A stretch of DNA of 64,000 bases, taken from an uncultured Clostridiaceae bacterium. Lineage in GTDB: Bacteria > Bacillota_I > Bacilli_A > RFN20 > CAG-288. Positions 2,659-58,966 of the stretch are shown here, piece by piece; the first letter of the stretch is position 1, and each line of letters opens with the position of its first letter. The notes beneath the pieces were generated by a model. That model made no database searches, was not told where the DNA came from, and saw only the letters and a program-made list of their open reading frames with translations. Both the position numbers and the translations under genes were made by a program. The stretch is from assembly GCA_964427595.1 (NCBI GenBank), contig CAYRUQ010000002.1, forward strand, positions 1,149-65,148. The letters run 5' to 3'.

Positions 2659-5384
2659 TGATTCTCTCCGATAGACTCTTTACATCTATGACAGAGATGA
2701 GAGCCTTCAACTTCAAAAATCTCATTTTGATCAAAGTGATTCCAACAACGATCACATCTCTGACCATCATGTTTTTCACAAGAAGTAGAACTAGAAACCA
2801 TAAAAGAAGAGATGAGAAGAATTCTTGCGACTTCTTTCTCACCGAGCTTGTTGATAAGTTCACTCTCTTCATCAGTAGGTGCATAGAACACACGAGCTTC
2901 AGAATTAGAGCCGATTACACCACTTTGTCTTAAAGGCTCTAAGATGGAATTGACATGAGAGCGTAGATTCAAAAGTGTTTGATAATCTTTAGAAAGAGTT
3001 TCATCCACTATCAAGTCTTTAGGATAATTCTCTAAAGCAATCGAATCTTTTCTATCTTTATCTGCGAGAGAATCATAGACTTCCTCCATCGTGAAACAAA
3101 GGATCGGTGAATAAGCGATGGCTAAGTTTTTAACTATTTGATGAAGGACATACTGGCAGTTTCTTCTCTCTTGAGAGTTTTTGGCATCGCAATACAAAGT
3201 ATCTTTAGAAAGATCGAGATAGAAAGAGCTGAGATCGTTGATTAAGAAATTAGTGAAGATATCACTGACATTGTTGAAACTATAAGAGTCATAGGCTTTC
3301 TTCATCTCAAGAAGAACTTCATTAAGACGATTGAGCATCATCTTATCAAGAAGACCTAAATCAGTAGGTTTATATTCTTCATCAAAACGAGAGCCTAAAT
3401 CATCATCAAGAAGATTAGCTAACATGAACTTGAAGGTGTTTCTGATCTTTCTATATTCATCAGAGACCGTCTTCAATAAGTCTTGAGAGAGTCTGATCTC
3501 ACTTGTTGAATAATCGATAGTGGTCGCCCAAAGTCTTAAGATATCTGCTCCATATTTATTGCAGATCGTCTCAGGATCAATACCATTCTTCTTTGATTTA
3601 GAGAACTTCTCTCCGTTTTGGTCAACTAAAAAACCATGAGTCAAAACCTGTTTATAAGGAGTGGATCCTGTCTTAGCGACCGAGAGAATCATCGAAGAGT
3701 TATACCAACCACGATATTGGTCATTACCTTCTAAAATGACATCAGCTGGGAAAGGATGTCCTAATGCGATATCAGAACCTAAGAAAGAAGAACCTGAATC
3801 AAACCAGACATCCATGATGTCCTTCTCTTTGGTGAAGATACCATCAGGAGAATGAGGATTCGTATATCCTTCAGGAAGGAGATCTTTGACATCTTTTTCA
3901 TACCAGATATCTGAACCATATTCTTTAAATAAACTGATGATGTGATCAAAGAGGACTTTATCTAAGAGAGGTTCACCATCCTGTCCATAGAAAATCGGAA
4001 TCGGAACACCCCAAAGACGTTGTCTAGAGATACACCAATCATCTCTGTTCTCAAGCATGTTCTTGAGTCTTTGCTTACCCCAACTAGGGATGAAACTGAC
4101 TTTATCAGCTTCTTCAAGAAGCTTATCCTTAATAGCTGAGACAGAACAGAACCACTGATTAGTCGCTCTGAAGATGATCGGTTTTTTAGTTCTCCAATCA
4201 TGAGGATAAGCGTGAGTGATCTCCTCACTTGCTAAAAGAGAAGAGTTATTCTTCAAGATTTCAACCACTTTAGTGTTGCACTCTTCATAGAAAAGACCAG
4301 CGAGTTCTTCACCGGCATCTTTAGTCATATAACCTTTGTCATCGACAGGACAATAGGCCTCAAGACCATATTTCTTACCGACTCTGAAGTCATCTAAACC
4401 ATGACCAGGGGCGATATGAACAACACCGGTACCAGAATCAGAAGTGACATAATCGTCAACCATCACAATCGAGTCTCTCTGATAGAAAGGATGCTGACAG
4501 ACGATACCTTCTAAATCCTCACCTTTGAAAATCTTCAAAAGTTCACCCTCATTAAGAGAAAGTTTCTCTTTTAATGAATCGGCAGCATCTTTAAGGAAGA
4601 GGAGATTTCCTTTATCAGTTTTGAAAAGTCCATATTCAAGTCTCGGATTAAGACAGAGTCCTAGGTTGGCAGGGAGAGTCCAAGGAGTGGTAGTCCAGAT
4701 GACGAAGTAATCATCACAAGAGAGAAGTGACTTTCCATCTTTGACTTTGAAACGGACGAAGACTGTTATCGCATTGACATCCTTGTATTCGATCTCCGCT
4801 TCGGCTAAAGCTGTCTCAGAAGAAGAAGACCAGTTGACCGGTTTAAGACCTTTATAGATGAGACCTTGAAGAGCCATATCACGGAAGATCTCAACTTGGT
4901 GAGCTTCATATTCTTTATCTAAAGTCAAATAAGGATGTTGATAATCACCAACTAATCCTAGACGGAGCATTTGACCTCTTTGTTTATCAACTTGAGAAAG
5001 CGCATAAGCAGCGCATTTCTTTCTGAATTCATGAGGAGGAGTCGTTTTTCTATCAACACCAGATTTAGTCACACAAAGTTCAATCGGAAGACCATGGCAG
5101 TCCCAACCTGGAGTATAAGGAACCTGATAACCTTCAAGATTCTTCAAACGGATGATGATATCTTTAAGAATCTTATTTAAAGCATGACCGGCATGAATCT
5201 CGTTGTTAGCATAAGGAGGACCATCATGAAGATAAAACGCCTTGTCACTGCTACGATTATCTAAAAGCTTTTGATAGAGATTTTCATCATTCCAACGCTT
5301 GACAAAAATAGGCTCTCTTTCCGGCAAATTAGCTCTCATCGGGAAGGTGCCTTTAGGCATCAATAAGGTGTTCTTTAATTCCAT
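2655..5384 (-). CDS. ileS: Isoleucine--tRNA ligase
   Basis: 909 aa; class I HIGH variant (HAGHALNK) and KMSKS (KFSKSK) motifs; C-terminal zinc finger CxxC...CxxC; GAGGAG Shine-Dalgarno. Confidence 0.95.
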   Translation of the reverse strand: MELKNTLLMPKGTFPMRANLPEREPIFVKRWNDENLYQKLLDNRSSDKAFYLHDGPPYANNEIHAGHALNKILKDIIIRLKNLEGYQVPYTPGWDCHGLPIELCVTKSGVDRKTTPPHEFRKKCAAYALSQVDKQRGQMLRLGLVGDYQHPYLTLDKEYEAHQVEIFRDMALQGLIYKGLKPVNWSSSSETALAEAEIEYKDVNAITVFVRFKVKDGKSLLSCDDYFVIWTTTPWTLPANLGLCLNPRLEYGLFKTDKGNLLFLKDAADSLKEKLSLNEGELLKIFKGEDLEGIVCQHPFYQRDSIVMVDDYVTSDSGTGVVHIAPGHGLDDFRVGKKYGLEAYCPVDDKGYMTKDAGEELAGLFYEECNTKVVEILKNNSSLLASEEITHAYPHDWRTKKPIIFRATNQWFCSVSAIKDKLLEEADKVSFIPSWGKQRLKNMLENRDDWCISRQRLWGVPIPIFYGQDGEPLLDKVLFDHIISLFKEYGSDIWYEKDVKDLLPEGYTNPHSPDGIFTKEKDIMDVWFDSGSSFLGSDIALGHPFPADVILEGNDQYRGWYNSSMILSVAKTGSTPYKQVLTHGFLVDQNGEKFSKSKKNGIDPETICNKYGADILRLWATTIDYSTSEIRLSQDLLKTVSDEYRKIRNTFKFMLANLLDDDLGSRFDEEYKPTDLGLLDKMMLNRLNEVLLEMKKAYDSYSFNNVSDIFTNFLINDLSSFYLDLSKDTLYCDAKNSQERRNCQYVLHQIVKNLAIAYSPILCFTMEEVYDSLADKDRKDSIALENYPKDLIVDETLSKDYQTLLNLRSHVNSILEPLRQSGVIGSNSEARVFYAPTDEESELINKLGEKEVARILLISSFMVSSSTSCEKHDGQRCDRCWNHFDQNEIFEVEGSHLCHRCKESIGENQ

Positions 5385-26547: not shown

Positions 26548-28290
26548 TCAGTCCTGAGGGATGGTTATCTTCGGATAAGTGTCCTCATCATCGTAAGGTG
26601 ATTCGGTACGGAAGAGTTCAGGATAGTTCTCGATCATGTAATCGAGGAAATCTTCATCCGAATAATCCATCTCAGTTCTTCTCAACCAATAAACGACAGC
26701 TTCAGTCTTATAAGAACCGGTGGTGGACATGACATAAGCGACTTCTCTTCCGATCTGTTCTCTCTTAGTAGCATCAGAATAGACGGAAGTAGTAGAAGTG
26801 GTCGACATAGCTTGAGTGTTGACGACATCGAGGATTCTGACGAGATAGTAAGTGCTGGAATCAGAATCATAGAAGATGATGTCATCGGCAGAGATGGTGT
26901 CACTGCTAGAGGTGGAAGAAGAGACGGTGTTTTCGACGGTCAAATAACGATAACCATCGTTTCCATAAGTGGTGATGTCATATTTGACAGTACCAGGGTT
27001 AGCTTTCATCTCAGCAATCTCGTTAGCGTTGACGGTCATATTGGTGGAGAAGATACGATCGGAGATGGTATCAGGAAGGTTAGAGACACCATCGCTTTGG
27101 AGATAGATGCCATCAGTGACGAAGTCACTAGTGGCGATATCATCGATAGCTCTTCTGACACCAGTGAGGTAGTCATAGGTATAAGAGCCAGTGTAAGTAG
27201 ATTCAAGATCAGTATCGATCTTGTTGAAATCGCTAGCGCTAGCCTCTAAATCAGCTAAGTCATCTAAGACTTCACCAGAGAGAGTGCCATAGTTGGTATA
27301 AGTGCTATCTTCGCTTCCAGTGACGATGATGTTGTTATCTTCAAGCCAAGAGACTTGCTCATCATCAAGGAGGACAGCATCATAACGATCAGCATATTGG
27401 CCTTGTTCATCAAATTCATTGATGACATCAGTAGTGATACCTTTCCAAAGATTAGAGAGGATGGTGAAGTCATCATCGACACCGGCATCGCCGAAGACAT
27501 AATCGTTGACATAGGCGTCAAGAAGCTTCTTAGCGGCTCCAGGTTGATCATCTCTATCAGTGAGAGCGATAACTTGGATATTTCTAGCGTTGGCGTTACC
27601 GATAGAAGCATAAGAGACGGTGTAGATGTATTCACTGACTAAGTAATTGATGCGGATATCGTCATAGAGATATTTCTCCATGTAAGCGAGATAAGCATCA
27701 TAATCACCTTGGTAGATGTCTTCAAACTCTAATTCAGGAGTGACTAAGACACCAGCAGGATCTTCTTCCCAACCCTCGAGAGGATCGACAGGAAGAGTGA
27801 AAGCAGTCTTTAAGGCGTCGACATAAAGTCTTTCCATGAAGAGGTTGTCTTCTTCATAGGTGCCATTTCCGGCGACGTCAACTAAGCTGTCTTTAGAACG
27901 ATAAAGCTGGTTATCGGCATCTGCGACAGCAGGTAAATCAGCAACATCAGTATCAGCGACAGAACCATCAAAATTATCATTGATAAGATTGACGACATCG
28001 CTACCATCAGTGCCACCCTTGTTGTCATGGGCGATATGAGAGATTTCAATCAAGATCTGATTGAGGGTCTCCTCATAGATGTCATCATAGCTGGAGATGA
28101 GATTGTAATAGTAATCCTCTCTCGTATCTTGAACGACAGTGTTATCGTCAGCTAAAGTCGGGATATTGGGGAAGAGAACGGTCTCGTAGTCATCAGGTAA
28201 TTTGATCTCATCAGAGCAGGAAGCAAGGGTGAAGAGAGCAAGACCGCAAGCGATGATTCCTAACTTGTTCTTTCTTTTACCTTTCAACAT
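26548..28290 (-). CDS. Large Asp/Tyr/Thr/Ser-rich lipoprotein, unknown function
   Basis: Start placed at the ATG at 28290 with GGAGG Shine-Dalgarno; lipobox LASC (LALFTLASCSDE); no recognisable catalytic motifs. Confidence 0.6.
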   Translation of the reverse strand: MLKGKRKNKLGIIACGLALFTLASCSDEIKLPDDYETVLFPNIPTLADDNTVVQDTREDYYYNLISSYDDIYEETLNQILIEISHIAHDNKGGTDGSDVVNLINDNFDGSVADTDVADLPAVADADNQLYRSKDSLVDVAGNGTYEEDNLFMERLYVDALKTAFTLPVDPLEGWEEDPAGVLVTPELEFEDIYQGDYDAYLAYMEKYLYDDIRINYLVSEYIYTVSYASIGNANARNIQVIALTDRDDQPGAAKKLLDAYVNDYVFGDAGVDDDFTILSNLWKGITTDVINEFDEQGQYADRYDAVLLDDEQVSWLEDNNIIVTGSEDSTYTNYGTLSGEVLDDLADLEASASDFNKIDTDLESTYTGSYTYDYLTGVRRAIDDIATSDFVTDGIYLQSDGVSNLPDTISDRIFSTNMTVNANEIAEMKANPGTVKYDITTYGNDGYRYLTVENTVSSSTSSSDTISADDIIFYDSDSSTYYLVRILDVVNTQAMSTTSTTSVYSDATKREQIGREVAYVMSTTGSYKTEAVVYWLRRTEMDYSDEDFLDYMIENYPELFRTESPYDDEDTYPKITIPQD

Positions 28291-30322
28291 GGCAGAGGGC
28301 CTCCATTTCATCGTTATCACCATAGGAACCACTTTGGAAGTAAGAGACACAGACAGTAGGAACAACTCTCTTAGGAGCGTAATCTTCGTAAAGATTGAGC
28401 TGTCTTACATAAGTCTCCCAAGAAGAATCGAGTGAATCTTCGTTGGAGTTCTCGCTAGTTTCTCTGGTGTAATCGATATATCTTTGGATGATATCTTCAA
28501 CTGTCTCTTGATTTTCACCTAAGGTTTCATAGAAGGAAGTGCCATAGGTGGATTCATAGGTGGCTAAATTCTTCTCGTAAAGTTTGAAATCGTAATTTTC
28601 ATCAGAAGCAGAGATGGATGTACGAACATTCTCGATTCTGGAGGTATAAGCGCTGTTGGAATCATAGTCAGCGTTGATGTAGTTGACATAAGAAGGATAA
28701 GTGGAGTAATCAGTTGATTCAGCAGGTGTAGCATCATCATCGGTGGAAGGAATATTAACTCTCCAGTAGTTGTAGGATTCTTGTCCACTTTCTTCGATGA
28801 AGGGATCTTCCTTGACGACGATGAAGTGGATTCCTTCATAACCGGAGCTGCTGGAATCATCGTCATCAGAGCTAGAGGAAGAACCAGCTCTTGTGACCAT
28901 GATAGGATTACCATCTTCATCAACTAAAATGTCATGGTTAGAGATGGAACTGATAGAAGCAGTAGTGGATTCATATGTTTCATAAGTATAAGCGACGAGA
29001 TTATCAGAGATACCACTGTAATTGGTGAACTTGGTATCGGACATGGCTGCTAATTGAGCAGCAACATAGTCGTACTCTTGTAATCTGGAATATAAATCTG
29101 AATCATTTGCAGCAGCGGATCTAAGATCAGCGATGGTATTGAGGCTAGTTCCATAGACTTGATTAACTTCAGCTAAGAAGTTAGAAGCATAATCATCGCT
29201 ATCATCATAGATGAAGCAGACAGAGTGATTATTGAAATAGTTATTAAATAAGATATTTCGAGGATATTGAGTCTCATCAGTATAAGAGACGTTGGTCCCA
29301 TCATCAGCTCTTTCTTGGTTAGCGACATAATAGAGACGGAAAGCGACGGAGACCGGGATGCCATAAGCGTTTCCTTGACCGATTTGAGTAGAGGAGATCT
29401 CAGAAGAAACAGGGCTATCAGTCACTTCACCATTATCAGCATCCTCACCAGGAACTTGGAGGCTTGATTTGACTTCAGCGTTATCCTTGGTCTGAGGATT
29501 GATGAAAGCATCATAAGCATAGATGCCAAGTTTGAACTCGTTGACATAGCTGGTGGTCTTAGACATAGAAGCACCAGAAGAACCGCCTAAATCACCATAG
29601 GAGTCAGCAGAAGAATCATCAGAGAGGATTCTTGCGACATTACCGAAGGTAGTGGTGGAAGTCAAATTAGAAACGACGCTTCCGATTTGTAAAGCATCAT
29701 CAGCCGAGATGTGACCATCCCAAATACCAGTTCCGGTACTAGCGGAATCAGCATCAAGTTGAACTAAGATATGAGAGACATGATAAGGAGATTCTTTCTC
29801 GACGAATTCCTTAGTGTCATCTTCGGAGATGTAATAAAGTCCTCCGTACTCAGTATCTTCGCCAGCGGTATCAGTGTAATAAGCCTCAGAGTTGACTTCG
29901 TTTTGAACCTGAGCAGTTAATTTAGCACGATACTCGTCCATATCTTCGACGTGTTCATCGTCGAAAGTAGCTTCTTGCTCCTCTTTGTAAGAAGTACCAT
30001 TGGTGCTGGCGTTTTCTTCCCAAGTGTCTTCCATTTCCTCAATCAAAGCGTCAACACGGCTTGTGATGACGGAGTTGACAGGAGTGACAATCTGGGCTAA
30101 GACGTTCTTAGCAGTCTCATAATACGCTTCAGCAGAAGCTTGTTCCCCTTCGAACAGCTCGAAAATCTCATTGTAGGTGTAAGCTTTACCACCGACAGTG
30201 ACGATGATGTTATCTTGCCAGTCTGCATCCGGATAGGTGTAATCAGAACTACAGGAAGCAAGAACACCTGCGATGAGAGTGACGCTCATCGCCAAAGAAA
30301 AGGTTCTAATACCTTTTTTCAT
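28277..30322 (-). CDS. Large acidic Ser/Asp-rich lipoprotein, unknown function (possible parvulin-like segment)
   Basis: Lipobox LASC (GVLASCSSD); strong Shine-Dalgarno; SSSSSDDDDSSSSG run; YHVSHILVQLD resembles the parvulin/PrsA hxxSHILV signature. Confidence 0.6.
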   Translation of the reverse strand: MKKGIRTFSLAMSVTLIAGVLASCSSDYTYPDADWQDNIIVTVGGKAYTYNEIFELFEGEQASAEAYYETAKNVLAQIVTPVNSVITSRVDALIEEMEDTWEENASTNGTSYKEEQEATFDDEHVEDMDEYRAKLTAQVQNEVNSEAYYTDTAGEDTEYGGLYYISEDDTKEFVEKESPYHVSHILVQLDADSASTGTGIWDGHISADDALQIGSVVSNLTSTTTFGNVARILSDDSSADSYGDLGGSSGASMSKTTSYVNEFKLGIYAYDAFINPQTKDNAEVKSSLQVPGEDADNGEVTDSPVSSEISSTQIGQGNAYGIPVSVAFRLYYVANQERADDGTNVSYTDETQYPRNILFNNYFNNHSVCFIYDDSDDYASNFLAEVNQVYGTSLNTIADLRSAAANDSDLYSRLQEYDYVAAQLAAMSDTKFTNYSGISDNLVAYTYETYESTTASISSISNHDILVDEDGNPIMVTRAGSSSSSDDDDSSSSGYEGIHFIVVKEDPFIEESGQESYNYWRVNIPSTDDDATPAESTDYSTYPSYVNYINADYDSNSAYTSRIENVRTSISASDENYDFKLYEKNLATYESTYGTSFYETLGENQETVEDIIQRYIDYTRETSENSNEDSLDSSWETYVRQLNLYEDYAPKRVVPTVCVSYFQSGSYGDNDEMEALCHVER

Positions 30323-30464
30323 TAGTGCCCTCCTTGTTGAATAGCTTTATCACAGTGGACAATCCCTACTAATATAGTAGTTTGCTTTTTTGATTTCAAG
30401 AATAACATTATAATCCAAACTCGGTTATAACAAAGACGTTATTTGTGCTAAAATTTTTTTCACC

Positions 30465-31265
30465 ATGAAAGAAACTTTTGCGGTCATAAATCAGAAAGGC
30501 GGTGTCGGCAAAACTACATCCGCATACAATCTAGCTTCAGCCCTCTCTCGATATAACAAGCGAATACTTCTCATCGATCTTGATCCGCAAGGATATTGTT
30601 CCCAAGCGATTGGGGTCGATTCTACCCTTTTGAGGAGAACTGTCGCTGATCTTTTAGCAGGTAGAGCGGATATGAAGAAAGTCATCAGACGAACTTTCTT
30701 CAGCAATATCTCCTTGATCCCAGCTAATCTTTCTTTACAAAGTACCGAAGCAGAGCTGATTCAACAAAGCAAAAATGATTTAACACACTTAAAAAAGTGT
30801 CTTGATGATAGTGAGACTGATTACTACGATTTCATCATCATCGATTGCCCGCCTTCATTAGGTTTTCTCTCATTAAATGCGATGAGTGCATCCGATAGTT
30901 TGATCGTCCCCGTCCAGTGCGAATATTTCGCAATCGATGCTTTAGCTAAACTTTTAGCTTCAGTCAGCGCTATTCAAAGAACCAGTAATCCAGATTTAGA
31001 GATCATGGGAATCCTTTTAACTATGTTTGATCCGAGAACCAAACTTTCAACGGAAGTAGCGATGGAAGTGAGAAACTCCTGTAAAGAAAAAGTCTTCACC
31101 ACTTACATACCGAGAAATATATCTATCCCAGAAGCTATCTCTAAATCGATGCCAGTCATCAACTACAAGCCTGGTTCACAAGGTGCTTTAGCTTATATGA
31201 GCTTAGCGAGAGAAGTGATGGCCTATACGGAAGCTAAAGAAAAGAGGTTAAACGAAGAGAAATAG
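30465..31265 (+). CDS. ParA/Soj-family ATPase with no adjacent parB
   Basis: Deviant Walker A KGGVGKTT near the N-terminus; full ParA length; no ParB-like gene follows. Confidence 0.85.
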   Translation: MKETFAVINQKGGVGKTTSAYNLASALSRYNKRILLIDLDPQGYCSQAIGVDSTLLRRTVADLLAGRADMKKVIRRTFFSNISLIPANLSLQSTEAELIQQSKNDLTHLKKCLDDSETDYYDFIIIDCPPSLGFLSLNAMSASDSLIVPVQCEYFAIDALAKLLASVSAIQRTSNPDLEIMGILLTMFDPRTKLSTEVAMEVRNSCKEKVFTTYIPRNISIPEAISKSMPVINYKPGSQGALAYMSLAREVMAYTEAKEKRLNEEK

Positions 31266-52538: not shown

Positions 52539-53279
52539 TCAGTAATTGATTCTTACTTTATAAGAGATAGAGTCGTCTTCTTTATAACCGATAACTTCTA
52601 TACCATCCTCAATCTCTTTTTCATAACTAGTCAAAGTCTCATCAAGCATGCATTCTTTTTCAAAATTGATCTCAATCTGCTTGATTGTTCTCGTATAACC
52701 GATTGAATCGATGATCTCAGCGTAAATCGCATTGTTCATATGACCATTTGTGTCGATATTATCAGGAGTGACTACATATTTATGAGGATTGATATGTTTA
52801 GGAATATCGATATCAAGAGTCGTCAATCCTTCTTCAAAAAGTTGAGGTGCCTTTTCAAGTTCTTCTAAATAAGGATTTAAAATTTCAATAACTGGTGTTA
52901 AAAGAGTGAGTCTTCTTTTTGTTCCATCTAGAAGGACCCACAAAGAAGTTAGTCTCGCTCTTTCATTTCCATCTTCACCATAAAAGATAGCTTCACGACC
53001 GATTTGAATCTTTCCAGGCTTAGTAGGATAGGTGACAATCGTACACTTTTCTCCTTTTTCAAAGGGAGAAACAATCTGGATTCTCATCCTGACGATAACG
53101 AATAATTTGTTGTTTTCTTTGATAAATTTATTTCCTATTCCAAGAAGATCAGCGTGACTGACCGCTGCATTGGAAAAATTAGAAAAAAGTGTCTTTAAAG
53201 AGAGATTACCTTGTTCATCAAACTCTTCAGCGATGAACTCTCTTTTGAAAATTAAAAACTCATTTAAGTTCAATTCCAT
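52539..53279 (-). CDS. Acyl-ACP thioesterase (double hotdog fold)
   Basis: ~246 aa; catalytic motif DIDTNGHMNNAIY (DxNxHxNN) in the second hotdog half. Confidence 0.7.
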   Translation of the reverse strand: MELNLNEFLIFKREFIAEEFDEQGNLSLKTLFSNFSNAAVSHADLLGIGNKFIKENNKLFVIVRMRIQIVSPFEKGEKCTIVTYPTKPGKIQIGREAIFYGEDGNERARLTSLWVLLDGTKRRLTLLTPVIEILNPYLEELEKAPQLFEEGLTTLDIDIPKHINPHKYVVTPDNIDTNGHMNNAIYAEIIDSIGYTRTIKQIEINFEKECMLDETLTSYEKEIEDGIEVIGYKEDDSISYKVRINY

Positions 53280-54007
53280 AATTTTCCTTCTTTATATAAG
53301 TTGATAACTTCATCATAGGAAGAAACTTCAACATAACGCAACCCTAGATAAGTCGGAAGGTCAGAGAATTGTGTGACATCTTTTTTAGAGAAGTTGAGCC
53401 AAATAACATTAGAAAATAAAGAAAGATTCGCTCCTTGAACATCTGCTAAGAAAGAATCACCGATATAAACACTTTCGGAAGGTCGGAATCCAGACATTTT
53501 AAGTCCAGTGTTAAAGAAAAGCGGATTAGGTTTTTTCACGCCTACTTCAGCTGAACCTAAAAAGAAAGATAATCCATTTTCAGGTAATAGTTTATTGACG
53601 AGTTTAAATGTGTCATCAGAGTCATAAATTGTGTTTGATAAAACTGCATGATAAATTTCATCTTCATTGAGCAAAGATAAAAATCGCTCAATTCCTTCAA
53701 CAGGTTGAGGATCAAGAGACAAGAGAACTTCGTGCACGCAATCATCTACTGAACAATCTAACTTGATGTGAAAGTTATGACAAAGAAGAGTTAAAAGTTG
53801 ACTATCTTTAATTTCATATCCATTGCTTGAACGAAAATATCTTCTGAAGAATTGCTCGGTAAATAGGGCAACTTGTGCCCAGTCAATTTCAGTTTTATTT
53901 ATAGAATGTTTCTCTAAACAGGCGATATTCCATGAAGGAGTTTTGCTCTTAAAACTGATTAATGTGTCCCAACAATCGAAGAATACAGCACGTTTTTTTG
54001 CTGACAT
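53270..54007 (-). CDS. HAD-superfamily hydrolase
   Basis: Motif I region RAVFFDCWDTLI and motif IV YIGDSFLADVQGA; start set to the ATG at 54007 with GGAGGTGA Shine-Dalgarno. Confidence 0.7.
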   Translation of the reverse strand: MSAKKRAVFFDCWDTLISFKSKTPSWNIACLEKHSINKTEIDWAQVALFTEQFFRRYFRSSNGYEIKDSQLLTLLCHNFHIKLDCSVDDCVHEVLLSLDPQPVEGIERFLSLLNEDEIYHAVLSNTIYDSDDTFKLVNKLLPENGLSFFLGSAEVGVKKPNPLFFNTGLKMSGFRPSESVYIGDSFLADVQGANLSLFSNVIWLNFSKKDVTQFSDLPTYLGLRYVEVSSYDEVINLYKEGKLWN

Positions 54008-54067
54008 AATCACCTCCATCTATTCTCTCTAAACACATCATTGAATATAACGAATCATGACTTGCTC

Positions 54068-54096
54068 TTGATTAAGAAAGAAGAAAAATATATATT
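54068..54096 (+). promoter_or_regulatory. Near-consensus sigma-A promoter with no downstream ORF
   Basis: TTGATT (54068-54073), 17-nt spacer, TATATT (54091-54096). Confidence 0.45.
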
Positions 54097-54102
54097 AATA
54101 TA

Positions 54103-54185
54103 TAGCAAGCCGCAAATAAATTCTATTGAATAGCACACGGGGAAAACTCACCAGATTATTAACTTAACTGGTGAGTTTTTCTTCG
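54103..54185 (+). ncRNA. Candidate small RNA (~80 nt) defined by an orphan promoter and an intrinsic terminator
   Basis: Predicted TSS ~54103 from the promoter above. A perfect 12-bp hairpin AAAACTCACCAG-(13-nt loop)-CTGGTGAGTTTT (54143-54179) is followed by TTCTTCGTTTT. There is no ORF or Shine-Dalgarno in between, and no upstream plus-strand gene to terminate. Confidence 0.3.
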
Positions 54186-54267
54186 TTTTGAACAAAAAAC
54201 TTATTATACACAGGCATATAATATAAAGTTGTTTCTCATTTTTCTTTCGCTTTTTTCTAAAAACTAA

Positions 54268-54296
54268 TTGAAAAAGTTGCAAAAACAATTTATATT
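54268..54296 (+). promoter_or_regulatory. Sigma-A promoter for the 54363 membrane protein gene
   Basis: TTGAAA (54268-54273), 17-nt spacer, TATATT (54291-54296); GGAGG Shine-Dalgarno at 54349. Confidence 0.45.
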
Positions 54297-54362
54297 TACT
54301 TTAAATTAACAATTAAACAACAGAACAACTATTTGTTTCTTATTCCTTGGAGGACTCAATGT

Positions 54363-56675
54363 ATGAGCAAACAAACAAATGTAGTTGCGGCTAGAAAGCC
54401 GAAAAAACTAAAGCCACGATTTTGGAGTTTACTATTCGTAATCATCTTTGTCATTCTCTTGATCGTCGCTGTGGCAGGAGCTGTTGCTCTTTTCACCCCT
54501 CTCTATAATGTTATTATTGATGGCTTTGGTATCGACACCACTGCTGAAGTATCAACTTGGTCTAATTTCTTCCAAAACCTGTACACTTATGTGAAGGAAC
54601 ATGTTGCTTCCGGTTATGGACTATCATTACCCTTCTGGCTTACTGGTGAAGGTGCTCAAGGTGATGCAGGCACATCTTATATTTGGTCTCTTGCCTTTAT
54701 CCTTTACGCCTATTACCTAATTATTATCGCTGCCTTATTCTTTACTTCCTTACCTTTATTTGCTATGGGCCGCATCAAACTGAAGAAAAAGAGTTCAAAA
54801 GCTCGTCTCTATATCTTCGCTACTCTTAACTTCTTGATTATCGCTTTCGCTTCCTTCTGTCTTTTAGTCCAACCTTGGGCTGATGATTACTCTAATTACT
54901 TCGGATGGACTAAACAAATCTTCACCTATATTGAAGAAGCTCTCTTTGTCGAAGGTCAACCTCTCTCATTCTTAGCTAAGAACTCTTCCGAATCTGCTCC
55001 TTATGCTCATAGTTACTTTGCTTCCATTGTCTTTACATATCTTGCTGTGTGCGTCGTCTCTCTCATCCTTCAGATTCCTTCTCTCGCTGGCGGAAACAAA
55101 CCCAAAGCTAAAGAGAAGACTGTTCCTTATTATGAAAGAGAATATAGCGATATTCCCGATGAAGAAGAGACGATCCTCCCTCCTTCAACACAACCTGTCG
55201 CAGCTATTGCTAAAGAAGCTAAAGAAGAAAAAACTCCTACTGCTCCTGCCCAAATTTCAACACCTGTCGTCGTTGCTACTCCTGCTGAATTCAAAGCTGT
55301 AGAAGCTGAAATGGTTACTAAAGCCGAAGTAGCTCCTACCCCTGCTGCTCCTGCCACTGCACCTGTGGTTGAAACACCGAAAGAAGAAATCAGAGTTTCT
55401 ACTACTGAAATCAACATTCTCAATTCTCTTGAACCTTTCAAGCTCAATCCTGTTGAAACCTTACCTGGTTATTACAAAACTGATACCGATGCCATCCTCA
55501 ACGCTTTAGAGCCTAAGAACTTGAATCGTGTCGATCAGACTCCCGATGAAGAAGAAGTCGATCAAAGAATCAAGAAGATTCTTGAATCTCTCTCTGCTTC
55601 TCAAAAGAATGAAGTTGATATCTTACCTGGAATCGGTGAAACAGGTGAGACTCCTTGGGATACTAAGGTAGCCCCTCAAGAAACTAGAACTACTAGTGAA
55701 GTCGCTCCTACACCTAGAGAAACTCCTGTCCAACAAACTGTTGCTCAAGAAACCGCTGGTGATGAAGAAATCAAAGATATCACCATCGATGCTCAACCTG
55801 AAGCTACTAGTGAACCTGTTGTCGAAGAGATTGTCCATCAAGAACTTGGTGGTGATGATACTAGCAGAAACGCTATAACTACTAAGTACAACGATTTAGA
55901 TGAAGAAGACAAAGTCTCTAATGTCATCAAACAGGAAGAAGAGGAAGAAGCTTTAGGTGAATCTCGCTATGATGAGAGAGTCACTAAGACTGAGACTGAA
56001 CATGAAGAAGTCTATACAGCTGCTCCTACAACTGCCACTACTAGAACTGCTACTGAAGTAGAAGAGGAAGTCACTCCTAAAGCAGAAGAAACAACCACTG
56101 CTAAAGAAGAGACGGTTGAAGAAGTTGTCGAAGCTCCCGCTGTTACTGAAGCCCCTCTTGATGAAGATGAAACTCCTGTTGTCGATGAAGAAGCACTCGC
56201 TAGAAAACGTATCACCCCTGTCGCTCCGTTAGCTAGACAAGAAGAAACTGTCGAAGTCAAAGAAGAGAAACAATTGACTGCTGTCTCCGGTCCTCTCCAC
56301 AACATCAGAAGCGCTAGAAAAGACATCAAACCTGTCGAAGCTAGAAAAGTCAAATTCGATCTCCAACAATATCGTATCAAGACCTATGAAGGTGATCTCA
56401 GTGCTGAAGAAGCCTTCACTAAAGGTGTCACTAAAGTTCAACCTGTCGTCAATCCTGTCTTCATCAACCAGAATCAAAAATCCGACTTCTTACAACAGAA
56501 ACGTGAAGAAGAAGTCAGAAAATCTGGCTACACCAATGTCACTACTGCTAAAATCGTCAAACCTACACATGCTATCTCTAGCGCAAACAAACCTCTCAAG
56601 AAAGCCACCTCTATCCGTGAACTCGTCAAGCAGAAGAAAGAAGACGATTCTACTGACGATAATAAAGCCGAATAA
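54363..56675 (+). CDS. Large membrane protein: 4-TM N-terminal domain plus ~500-aa acidic Pro/Thr/Ala/Glu-rich low-complexity C-terminal region
   Basis: Start at the ATG at 54363 (MSKQTNVV) after GGAGG. TM helices lie within residues ~20-260. The C-terminus has a triple motif ILNSLEPFKLNPVETLPG / ILNALEPKNLNRVDQTPDEE / ILESLSASQKNEVDILPG and repeated VAPTP/TPVV stretches. It ends at the terminator. Confidence 0.6.
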   Translation: MSKQTNVVAARKPKKLKPRFWSLLFVIIFVILLIVAVAGAVALFTPLYNVIIDGFGIDTTAEVSTWSNFFQNLYTYVKEHVASGYGLSLPFWLTGEGAQGDAGTSYIWSLAFILYAYYLIIIAALFFTSLPLFAMGRIKLKKKSSKARLYIFATLNFLIIAFASFCLLVQPWADDYSNYFGWTKQIFTYIEEALFVEGQPLSFLAKNSSESAPYAHSYFASIVFTYLAVCVVSLILQIPSLAGGNKPKAKEKTVPYYEREYSDIPDEEETILPPSTQPVAAIAKEAKEEKTPTAPAQISTPVVVATPAEFKAVEAEMVTKAEVAPTPAAPATAPVVETPKEEIRVSTTEINILNSLEPFKLNPVETLPGYYKTDTDAILNALEPKNLNRVDQTPDEEEVDQRIKKILESLSASQKNEVDILPGIGETGETPWDTKVAPQETRTTSEVAPTPRETPVQQTVAQETAGDEEIKDITIDAQPEATSEPVVEEIVHQELGGDDTSRNAITTKYNDLDEEDKVSNVIKQEEEEEALGESRYDERVTKTETEHEEVYTAAPTTATTRTATEVEEEVTPKAEETTTAKEETVEEVVEAPAVTEAPLDEDETPVVDEEALARKRITPVAPLARQEETVEVKEEKQLTAVSGPLHNIRSARKDIKPVEARKVKFDLQQYRIKTYEGDLSAEEAFTKGVTKVQPVVNPVFINQNQKSDFLQQKREEEVRKSGYTNVTTAKIVKPTHAISSANKPLKKATSIRELVKQKKEDDSTDDNKAE

Positions 56676-56965: not shown

Positions 56966-57769
56966 ATGAACTCAATCTTATATTCAATAATCATCCTAAT
57001 TATCCCATTTCTAGCTACTACTCTCGGTTCTTCAATCGTCGTATTCTTCAACAAAGAGAAGATGAATCCAGTGATAGAGAAAATCTGTAACGGCTTTGCC
57101 GCTGGCGTCATGCTTTCCGCATCTATTTTTGGACTTCTGATACCATCGATTGAAGATTATGAGATCTCTTATATGCCATCTATTCTAGTGGCATTAATCG
57201 CCTTCATCTTAGGAACATTGTTGATGCTTTTAATCGATCACATCGTTCCTCATTTTCATGTAGAAGGGAATTATGAAGAAGGTTTAAAAAGAACCAATAT
57301 CTCTAAGACAAAGAAAATGTTCTTAGCTGTTTTGATTCATAACATACCAGAAGGTTTATCTGTTGGCGTCGCCCTTGGAACTGCTCTAGCTCTTGTCGGT
57401 AGTGATTCTTTGACAGCTATCTTCTCTTCGGCTTTATCTTTATCCGTCGGTATCGCTATTCAAAACATACCTGAAGGAGCTGTCGTCTCTATTCCAGTTA
57501 AAGTTGAAACTAAGTCGAGAAGAAAAGGTTTTCTCTTTGGTGCACTCTCTGGAATAGTAGAACCTATCTTTGGTCTTTTCGGTCTCCTTTTATCTTTCTA
57601 TATTGAAGCTATCATACCTTGGGCTCTTGCTTTTGCAGCAGGTTCGATGATTTATGTGACAGTCGAGGATCTGATTCCTAATGCGATGGAAAATAACGAA
57701 CATCATTACGGAATTCTCTCTTTTATCGCTGGCTTCCTGCTCATGATGCTGTTAGATTATTTGCTTTAA
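56966..57769 (+). CDS. zupT: ZIP-family divalent metal transporter (ZupT-like)
   Basis: 8-TM protein with the HNIPEGLSVGVAL signature; no Shine-Dalgarno, and the putative -10 lies only ~10 nt upstream of the ATG. Confidence 0.85.
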   Translation: MNSILYSIIILIIPFLATTLGSSIVVFFNKEKMNPVIEKICNGFAAGVMLSASIFGLLIPSIEDYEISYMPSILVALIAFILGTLLMLLIDHIVPHFHVEGNYEEGLKRTNISKTKKMFLAVLIHNIPEGLSVGVALGTALALVGSDSLTAIFSSALSLSVGIAIQNIPEGAVVSIPVKVETKSRRKGFLFGALSGIVEPIFGLFGLLLSFYIEAIIPWALAFAAGSMIYVTVEDLIPNAMENNEHHYGILSFIAGFLLMMLLDYLL

Positions 57770-57823
57770 AAATCAGCTTTATTGTATAATTTCTTTGCGT
57801 GCTGTTAAGGAGAGCACACCTTC

Positions 57824-58966
57824 GTGGACATAGACTGTAGCCCGTTATTAAGTAATTCACAATCTGTTGACCCTCTGTCGTCTAACACTAACACAGTTTC
57901 TAACACCGTTTGGGGCATGCCCATCTGGTTATGTTGGGTCATCATCGCCGTGTTGTTGTTGATAAGTGCATTATACTCAGCTAGTGAGAATGCGTTTTCA
58001 AATTGCAATAAATACCATTTCAAAGCCCAAGCTGCTAAAGGTAGCGTAACGGCTAAGCTCATATTATTACTAATAAAAGAATTTGACTGTACTCTAGTCT
58101 CAATATTAATCGGTAATAACATCGTACAAACGCTGATGTCTTATTTGTCAGCGATGCTTTTCTATTACATTTGTGAAGCCTATGGATTAGGCGCAGGTGT
58201 CGAAGCTATCCTCTCGACTGTGGTTATGGCTTTTTTGGTTTATATCGTATCCGATACAGTTCCTAAGATCATATCCAAAGCGATGCCTAATAAGATGGCT
58301 ACCATCTTGTGCTATCCGGTTTTTATCTCTAGTTGTATCCTCTTTATTCCGATACCGATTTTCTATGGAATTCTCAAGCTTGTTCATAAGGTCTTTAAAG
58401 TTAAAGAATCAAACCTTCTTTCTAAAGAAGATATTCTCCACTCGGTTTCGATAGCTGTGACTGATGAAAGTGAAGAAGATGAAGAGGAAGAAGAGAAATT
58501 ATTTGATAGAGATGAGACAGAACTTCTTGATAAAGTCTTCACCTTTGATAAGAGAACAGTGAAAGACGTTTATCGTCCTTCAGAAGAAGTTTTCTCTATT
58601 TCAAGTGATGATTTAATTGCTAGCAAAGTCAATGATATCATCGTCCATACTAATTACTCTCGTATCCCAGTTTATGATGGTGAAAAAGACAATATCATCG
58701 GAATTCTCGTCACTAAGATCTATTTTGAAGAATATGCCAAGGATATCCATCTCTCCATTCCTTCCATCTTGGAAGAAGTCGTTTCTATTGATGCCTCACT
58801 TCCTTTAGATGACGCTTTCGACGCTTTAAATAGTGAAAAAGTCCATCTTGGCATCGTCAAAGAGAACGATAAATTTATCGGTATCATCTCAATGGAAGAT
58901 ATCTTAGAAGAGATCGTCGATGATATCGATGAAACCCCTGCTTTAGAGATAGGAGAAAACGTATGA
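57824..58966 (+). CDS. CNNM/DUF21-CBS pair membrane protein (CorC/HlyC-family, lacks the C-terminal CorC_HlyC domain)
   Basis: GTG start with AAGGAGAG Shine-Dalgarno 9 nt upstream; DUF21 4-TM domain, two CBS motifs, acidic EEDEEEEE stretch. Confidence 0.8.
   Translation: MDIDCSPLLSNSQSVDPLSSNTNTVSNTVWGMPIWLCWVIIAVLLLISALYSASENAFSNCNKYHFKAQAAKGSVTAKLILLLIKEFDCTLVSILIGNNIVQTLMSYLSAMLFYYICEAYGLGAGVEAILSTVVMAFLVYIVSDTVPKIISKAMPNKMATILCYPVFISSCILFIPIPIFYGILKLVHKVFKVKESNLLSKEDILHSVSIAVTDESEEDEEEEEKLFDRDETELLDKVFTFDKRTVKDVYRPSEEVFSISSDDLIASKVNDIIVHTNYSRIPVYDGEKDNIIGILVTKIYFEEYAKDIHLSIPSILEEVVSIDASLPLDDAFDALNSEKVHLGIVKENDKFIGIISMEDILEEIVDDIDETPALEIGENV

Follow-up and report, generated by a model that had tools for sequence, protein, structure and literature searches.

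The stretch of DNA considered here is a 64,000-nucleotide (nt) piece of contig CAYRUQ010000002.1 from an uncultured bacterium (GenBank assembly GCA_964427595.1), and this whole 64-kb stretch is referred to below as the window. It contains an intergenic region flanked by two divergently transcribed genes, namely a minus-strand HAD hydrolase gene (53270..54007), which is the first of a HAD-thioesterase-ComFA-ComFC operon, and a plus-strand gene for a membrane protein of 770 amino acids (54363..56675). A first-pass annotation, made from the letters of the window alone, had recognized this divergent arrangement, but the extent that it gave to the region needs correction. The longest open reading frame (ORF) for the HAD protein begins at 54019, which is 12 nt too early; the start is most likely the ATG at 54007, which has a Shine-Dalgarno sequence (GGAGGTGA), and the recorded HAD protein sequence is the product starting there. 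Because the HAD gene starts at 54007, the intergenic region spans 54008-54362. Within it, on the same strand as the membrane-protein gene, lies a compact unit of promoter, transcribed segment and terminator (54068-54189) that very probably constitutes an independent gene for a small RNA (sRNA).

The promoter of the unit is of the sigma-70 type and consists of a -35 hexamer, TTGATT (54068..54073), and a -10 hexamer, TATATT (54091..54096), separated by a spacer of 17 nt, just as the first-pass annotation had described. Nine of its twelve positions match the consensus. By itself such a match is at chance level, with six sites of this quality in a 2.5-kb region against 7.0 expected, and what lends the promoter credibility is that, in some 44 related sequences, both hexamers stand at a constant distance 5′ of the RNA. 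In at least 90% of 49 aligned sequences, the TTG of the -35 hexamer and a TAnAnT form of the -10 hexamer line up, with a spacing of 17 +/- 1 nt, and the -10 hexamer of the relatives lies a fixed ~28–30 nt upstream of the invariant core described below.

The predicted transcript is ~80–87 nt long (54103..54189), with a putative start ~7 nt past the -10 hexamer and a putative end in the U-tract. Its layout is simple: a variable 5′ end of ~20 nt is followed by the near-invariant AAUUC(C/U)AUUGAAUAGCACACAG and then by the terminator hairpin. In an alignment of 34 sequences and 91 nt, termed A3, the invariant columns define a conserved region just 5′ of the terminator (54120..54140), which is the proposed seed. 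It includes a near-invariant core of 17 nt, CAUUGAAUAGCACACAG, within which ATTGAATAGCACA (54125-54137) is invariant save for one near-invariant G; the positions flanking ATTGAATAGCACA are near-invariant as well, and the sequence of the stem varies by species. Partition-function folds leave the AGCACAC part of the core mostly unpaired and place ATTGAAT partly in a weak 4-bp hairpin, and accessibility of the proposed seed is thus only partial. Two further structures were considered and set aside. A 5′ hairpin is compatible with the sequences and shows no covariation, because one of its strands is invariant, while a pseudoknot between the loop and the 5′ part of the RNA (AUUGAAUA with UAUUCAAU) is strong in 8 of 34 species and missing in most, including that of the window, with a median shuffle fraction of 0.52.

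The terminator is an extended hairpin with one bulge (54137..54186), and at its heart is the perfect 12-bp stem noted in the first-pass annotation, AAAACTCACCAG/CTGGTGAGTTTT, with arms at 54143-54154 and 54168-54179 and a loop of 13 nt (54155-54167). The folding energy is -27.1 kcal/mol, compared with -12.6 +/- 3.1 for dinucleotide shuffles (z = -4.7), and none of 200 shuffles was as good. The sequence directly 3′ of the stem is TCTTCGTTTT, the U-rich tract as a whole is TTTTTCTTCGTTTT (54176..54189), and the consensus of this tract among relatives is GGGTTTTTCTTTT. The structure thereby has the features of an intrinsic terminator, that is, a stable, G+C-containing stem-loop followed by a U-rich tail, UUUUUCUUCGUUUU, on the transcribed strand. 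A general terminator scan permits loops of 3–8 nt only, and this is the sole reason that a hairpin with a 13-nt loop escaped it. The hairpin would end the transcript and is likely to stabilize the RNA. Conservation extends to the ends of the loop (A3 columns 55-67), with AUU at the 5′ side and AA at the 3′ side (G-ATT...AA-C); together with the conserved closing G-C pair, these conserved loop ends are unusual for a plain terminator.

Conservation of the unit across relatives is extensive. The nearest relatives of the HAD protein are 57% identical to it, and all come from gut and rumen metagenome-assembled genomes of uncultured Bacilli that belong to the RF39/Candidatus Enterosoma type. The intergenic region of the window recurs unchanged on two metagenome contigs of the same species. 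A genome scan with an alignment of the HAD protein yielded 49 loci, and in about 30 species the gene order is as in the window, with the membrane-protein gene on one strand and the HAD-thioesterase-ComFA-ComFC series divergent from it. Altogether the sRNA unit is found, in fixed synteny, in 34 genome loci and 18 metagenome loci of RF39/Enterosoma-like Bacilli (~44 distinct sequences), although the neighbouring proteins at these loci share only 40–57% (HAD) and 55–76% (ComFA) identity with their counterparts in the window. The intergenic region measures 300–480 nt, and each locus that holds one has a single strong hairpin of -17 to -32 kcal/mol, accompanied in every such locus by a T-run on the strand of the membrane-protein gene and preceded in relatives by the motif ATTGAATAGCACACAG. 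Besides the aligned loci, the core is kept in the 18 metagenome loci and in locus L121. These 18 came from a metagenome scan with a core-plus-loop pattern, which returned 23 stretches; the 18 genuine ones all have the same synteny, and the remaining five are chance matches that have no hairpin. In locus L059, the HAD and thioesterase genes are gone, and the element lies between ComFA and a gene with the N-terminus of the membrane protein. In all loci, then, the RNA adjoins the membrane-protein gene on the same strand, even after loss of HAD and thioesterase.

A covariance model, R1, built from the 34 loci scored 80.6 bits at the window locus (E = 1e-12) and found exactly one copy per locus across 520 kb, with none elsewhere in the window. 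A repeated element was considered and ruled out on these counts and because the hairpin arm occurs only once in the 64 kb. Among the 4227 models of Rfam 15, only four tRNAs were matched in the whole window, and a search of 53950-54450 at E <= 10 gave only noise (at most 19 bits, against thresholds of 39–100) and no family. Likewise, nothing relevant to the core motif string or to sRNAs of RF39 was found in the literature searched, and no report of an RNA regulator in RF39/Enterosoma-like Bacilli turned up there. The family thus appears to be genuine, conserved and apparently undescribed, and of an ordinary kind, namely that of the trans-acting base-pairing sRNAs.

The conservation of the hairpin is one of structure. 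Compensatory changes are present in 8 of the 12 stem pairs, a count on which RNAalifold and explicit pair counting agree, and the covariation that the first-pass annotation had named as a check was thus borne out. Cells of the stem are paired in 94% of cases, compared with 29–52% when the partners are slid by one to three columns, and the covariation score was reached by none of 500 shuffles. Read on the plus strand, the stem has 40 G·U cells and a single A·C cell, and this asymmetry therefore points to a plus-strand RNA as the object of selection, rather than the minus strand or duplex DNA. The same count makes it very improbable that the element acts at the level of DNA, either as a bidirectional terminator or insulator between the divergent units or as an operator. 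Such a role would be in keeping with the A-tract before the hairpin and the T-tract after it, as in bidirectional terminators, and with an inverted repeat, ATTCAAT-NCC-ATTGAAT, that a subset of species carries as an ATTCAAT-N3-ATTGAAT palindrome. However, no gene on the minus strand leads into the hairpin, conservation is poor in the left half of the palindrome (at two positions, 15 and 19 of the 34 sequences are unpaired), and AGCACACAG is not palindromic.

A second alternative, also raised by the first-pass annotation, is that the element is a cis-acting leader or attenuator, in which, under some condition such as antitermination by a protein that acts at the conserved motif, transcription from the promoter at 54068-54096 would read through the hairpin and contribute to expression of the gene at 54363. 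The element is indeed always upstream of the membrane-protein gene and co-oriented with it, in more than 40 sequences, and its conserved motif abuts the terminator stem. Moreover, conserved nucleotides beside and within a terminator loop recall terminator-embedded riboswitches and leaders such as the HMP-PP thiS motif. Those elements, however, act in cis on the next gene, whereas here a conserved promoter intervenes. That promoter (TTGAAA, 17 nt, TATATT; 54268..54296, plus strand) had been assigned to the downstream gene in the first-pass annotation; it matches the consensus at 10 of 12 positions and has a counterpart between terminator and gene in all of the ~30 species, where its consensus is TCTTGYA, a spacer of 17–18 nt and usually an extended -10 of the form TGnTAnAAT, positioned 55–70 nt 5′ of the start codon. 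The downstream gene has its own conserved promoter past the terminator and is therefore not dependent on the upstream one. Nor is there an antiterminator, because pairing of the sequence 5′ of the stem with either arm of the terminator is no better than that of its shuffles (median fractions 0.65 and 0.57), and so no alternative pairing competes with the terminator. In addition, the start codon lies 175–250 nt from the terminator, no riboswitch or leader family of Rfam matches, and pairing of the core is not enriched at the start region of either neighbouring gene (median percentiles 0.45 and 0.56). A leader is accordingly disfavoured and regarded as improbable, and a stand-alone small gene of ~85 nt is the supported alternative.

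A third alternative is that the locus encodes a small protein or a type I toxin-antitoxin pair, through either a 46-amino-acid hydrophobic ORF on the minus strand (54148-54288) or a micro-ORF beginning at the TTG of the core. Mechanical ORFs are certainly present, and in some species the reading TTG AAT AGC ACA ... runs to a TAA in the loop. Nevertheless, 7 of 34 species lack the minus-strand ORF, and those that other species have in its place are unrelated, so that the conserved small hydrophobic ORF on the opposite strand that typifies type I systems is lacking; the micro-ORF, for its part, is not preceded by a Shine-Dalgarno sequence, and stem indels alter both its frame and its length. A coding function is hardly credible on this evidence. 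The statement in the first-pass annotation that the region holds no ORF thus needs qualifying, in that ORFs of 30 amino acids (plus strand) and 46 amino acids (minus strand) do exist, and it stands insofar as neither is conserved. The 30-residue ORF, which begins with TTG (54041-54133), starts upstream of the promoter.

The reading that the first-pass annotation had preferred, a stand-alone sRNA, is supported by the unit's own conserved promoter, its covarying terminator, the separate promoter of the downstream gene and a match between the core and the 5′ untranslated region (UTR) of a candidate target mRNA. The locus has, in other words, what would be expected of a trans-acting sRNA gene: a promoter of conserved position and a terminator that are separate from the flanking genes, no conserved ORF (as judged by the ORF listing and by frame analysis of A3), and a conserved, partly accessible seed whose complement is conserved in a predicted target mRNA.

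The best candidate that emerged from the target search is a gene for a PrsA-like lipoprotein of 681 amino acids, the first of a two-gene operon on the minus strand (28277..30322). The lipoprotein 5′ UTR reads ...CCACUGUGAUAAAGCUAUUCAACAAGGAGGGCACUAAUG, and the predicted binding site within it (30331..30356, minus strand; mRNA positions -34 to -9) consists of CUGUG, a bulge of 5 nt and GCUAUUCAA, ending 3 nt before the Shine-Dalgarno sequence GGAGG. The downstream box, GCUAUUCAA, is the exact complement of UUGAAUAGC in the sRNA core. The upstream box, CUGUG, is fully complementary to CACAG, the clade consensus, and pairs with the CACGG of the window through one G·U wobble. Among the 52 start regions compared in the window, that of the lipoprotein gene is the best (-17.9 kcal/mol, where the mean is -9.8 +/- 2.8).

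Orthologous lipoprotein genes from eight other species, with 46–70% protein identity, gave nine UTRs together with that of the window, and both boxes occur at the same place in all nine, while the intervening bulge varies freely. Apart from the promoter, the Shine-Dalgarno sequence and the start codon, no other long block than TATTCA is invariant in these UTRs. Averaged over the nine UTRs, the duplex energy is -18.0 kcal/mol, compared with -7.7 +/- 1.3 for 2000 shuffled cores, none of which reached it (the best gave -13.0). Among 386 sites with a Shine-Dalgarno sequence and start codon, drawn from all fetched loci, the orthologues rank 1–6, 9 and 15, and a pattern search of ~700 kb found the arrangement of boxes plus Shine-Dalgarno sequence before a start codon only at these lipoprotein genes. 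In full-length cofolds of two pairs that each come from a single genome, namely the window and L036 with L113, the 9-bp duplex is kept, with free-energy differences (ddG) of -8.9 and -7.6 kcal/mol. Two species (L119 and L120) have a longer upstream box (UGUGUGC instead of CUGUG) and have lost the GC of the downstream box, GCUAUUCAA. The whole core therefore stays covered; this redistribution is of the kind expected if the pairing is under selection.

From these observations a mechanism can be proposed, in which the sRNA would be transcribed from its own sigma-70-type promoter, ended by its own terminator and directed by its invariant stretch, acting as a seed, to the lipoprotein mRNA at about -38 to -9. 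Pairing would occur in two boxes, UUGAAUAGC with GCUAUUCAA and CACAG with CUGUG, and would stop at the edge of the Shine-Dalgarno sequence. The resulting duplex would block initiation of translation and so repress the lipoprotein operon. Repression is the most likely effect because the duplex sits inside the region that the 30S subunit must contact, and it is favoured over activation because the UTRs, taken alone, show no conserved structure that hides the Shine-Dalgarno sequence. The balance of evidence tilts modestly toward the view that the sRNA pairs with this mRNA and acts in this way; production of the RNA, its pairing in the cell and the sign of the regulation are predictions made from sequence.

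Several considerations weigh against that mechanism. The promoter and both the start and the end of the transcript are themselves predicted. The nine UTRs are related and hence do not amount to independent tests, and for the window by itself the duplex energy is equalled in 3 of 2000 shuffles, which becomes a marginal p of about 0.08 once the choice of the best of 52 start regions is taken into account. The core is invariant and therefore offers no changes that could be matched with changes in the target; moreover, the one target variant, in L116 (GCUAUUCAUUU), is unmatched by any change in the RNA from what is apparently the same genome. The full-length fold holds the CACAG part of the seed in the base of the extended terminator stem. 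Finally, invariance over 17 nt and a conserved loop exceed what one short mRNA site would demand, which hints at a further partner, and the strict linkage of the RNA to the membrane-protein gene is not explained by the model.

These last points bear on the alternative that the locus encodes a real, independent sRNA whose main job is another one, such as protein binding or the regulation of other targets, with the match to the lipoprotein UTR being secondary or coincidental. The invariance of the 17-nt core across an order-level clade and the conserved loop ends go beyond the needs of an mRNA site of 9 + 5 nt, the RNA is always found beside the membrane-protein gene, even where HAD and thioesterase are lost, and the target search covered 64 kb of this genome and ~10 kb per relative. 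Set against this are the strength and conservation of the complementarity to the UTR, the lack of a repeated protein-binding motif and the presence of one copy per locus. Such a division of labour is rather unlikely overall. It is also conceivable, though still doubtful, that the RNA is an order-wide, dedicated riboregulator of the extracytoplasmic folding and secretion machinery in the genome-reduced RF39 lineage, and that a second partner, either a protein or a regulon of envelope genes, lies behind the core invariance, the loop and the linkage. If so, the locus would be the hub of an envelope-homeostasis circuit that has no described counterpart in Firmicutes.

One other candidate target, the CNNM/CBS gene at 57824, was examined and rejected; its complementary stretch occurs only in the two nearest relatives and forms a hairpin of its own around the Shine-Dalgarno sequence. 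In that start region (57765-57840, plus strand), the Shine-Dalgarno sequence lies in the loop of the hairpin GUGCU-GUUAAGGAG-AGCAC, which is kept in the two nearest relatives (L003 and L036) and not in more distant ones.

Comparison with known systems places the predicted RNA among familiar kinds of regulators. RoxS and RsaE are intergenic RNAs of ~90–115 nt that have their own promoter and intrinsic terminator and block translation at or next to the Shine-Dalgarno sequence. The present RNA resembles them in size, in having its own promoter and terminator, in keeping a sequence-invariant motif across a wide clade and in its predicted pairing next to the Shine-Dalgarno sequence. However, RoxS and RsaE have two or more unpaired C-rich (CCCC) motifs, which pair with the G-rich Shine-Dalgarno sequence itself, whereas the core AUUGAAUAGCACACAG would pair mainly upstream of it; the 87-nt RNA contains no run of C and has no Rfam match at E <= 10, so that it does not belong to that family. 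The CiaR-dependent small RNAs (csRNAs) of Streptococcus, of ~90–150 nt, offer another parallel, as they too are intergenic, have their own promoter and terminator and occur in low-GC Gram-positive bacteria, and the present locus also adjoins competence genes (comFA/comFC). Unlike the csRNAs, it has no CiaR box (TTTAAG-N5-TTTAAG) among its aligned promoters, no anti-Shine-Dalgarno CCUCC in its aligned RNAs, no Rfam match and no pairing of the core to the start region of the ComF operon. The sigma-E-dependent sRNA MicL of E. coli, which represses the lipoprotein Lpp, is an Hfq-dependent proteobacterial RNA cut out of a coding gene. The likeness to MicL is one of logic only, in that the predicted principal target is again an envelope lipoprotein mRNA; the two RNAs are unrelated in sequence, and the target here is a PrsA-like foldase and not a structural lipoprotein.

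Human and animal guts commonly harbour RF39/Enterosoma-like Bacilli, of which, to our knowledge, few or no representatives are in culture. For these bacteria, the locus provides a candidate new RNA family, with an alignment of ~44 sequences, a covarying stem and an invariant core, and a marker that could be searched for in metatranscriptomes. It also offers a predicted pair of sRNA and PrsA-like foldase lipoprotein, through which RNA control would be tied to the secretion and envelope biology of a genome-reduced lineage. The locus reveals no new mechanism, and the proposed model does not account for three of its features: how invariant the core is, why the terminator loop is conserved and why the RNA never parts from the gene for the lineage-specific membrane protein.

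The assignment of the target protein as PrsA-like is made with moderate confidence. The protein has a signal peptide with the lipobox LASC and no significant sequence match in Pfam or the PDB; a weak, sub-threshold match to parvulin (Rotamase_3) has E = 0.087. An AlphaFold model built with 26 homologues has a predicted local distance difference test (pLDDT) score of 67 and a predicted template-modelling (pTM) score of 0.61, and a Foldseek search of the PDB with this model returned PrsA foldases of Firmicutes as all of its top 12 matches, with E-values of 4e-3 to 0.6 and low global TM-scores. PrsA foldases are recognized by a lipoprotein signal peptide and a parvulin-type PPIase domain with a helical chaperone domain at its flanks, and the present lipoprotein is 2.5 times the length of PrsA. 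Its gene is overlapped by the following ORF of 605 amino acids (580 from the start used in the domain scan), and the pair, which is conserved across the clade (26548-30322, minus strand), is divergent from a gene for a ParA/Soj-type ATPase (30465-31265, plus strand). The promoter of the pair, CTTGAAA, 17 nt, ACTATATTA, is almost invariant across species.

An origin of the sRNA on mobile elements was also considered. A plasmid origin was dismissed, there being no plasmid match, and a phage origin was dismissed as well, since independent viral matches are about as many as chance would give. The scan of viral contigs returned 38 matches, of which 32 belong to one abundant phage family of ~50 kb and the other six are unrelated singletons. 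In the phage family (IMG/VR loci L076, L079-L083, L085-L091, L093-L097 and L099-L112; for example, L079 at 4527-4540), the match is a 14-mer inside an ORF of 44 codons, without a hairpin, and only three of the matches reach the reporting threshold of R1 (~29 bits). This ORF lies just upstream of a 404-amino-acid gene, and 15 nt of the sRNA core (GUGUGCUAUUCAAUG) have their complement in the mRNA of the ORF. Nothing in the cultured-phage collection matches this phage family.

Between the sRNA terminator and the promoter of the membrane-protein gene lies a further conserved motif, AAAGTTGTTTCT (54225..54236, plus strand), which is present at fixed spacing in 29 of 31 species (loci L003-L038). 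This 12-nt motif, AAAGTTG(T/C)TTCT, is ~30 nt past the terminator and ~32–33 nt upstream of the -35 hexamer of the membrane-protein promoter; it has one exact copy in the window, where near matches are at chance level, and it may serve as a binding site for a regulator or as a second promoter. In many relatives, AAGTTG also occurs in the opposite orientation on the HAD side, where it is absent in the window.

The membrane protein itself seems to be specific to this clade. It has no match in Pfam or NCBIfam, and a search with its C-terminal domain for homologues that might place the RNA in other contexts returned only two matches. Its 770 residues comprise about four N-terminal membrane helices, a long acidic linker rich in Pro, Thr and Glu, three copies of an I-L-N-x-L-E-P-like motif and a conserved C-terminal domain of ~130 amino acids. 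In two of the relatives (L028 and L031; ~3400-4700, minus strand), an extra paralogue of the N-terminal membrane domain alone lies directly downstream of the sRNA, and the full-length membrane-protein gene comes after it.

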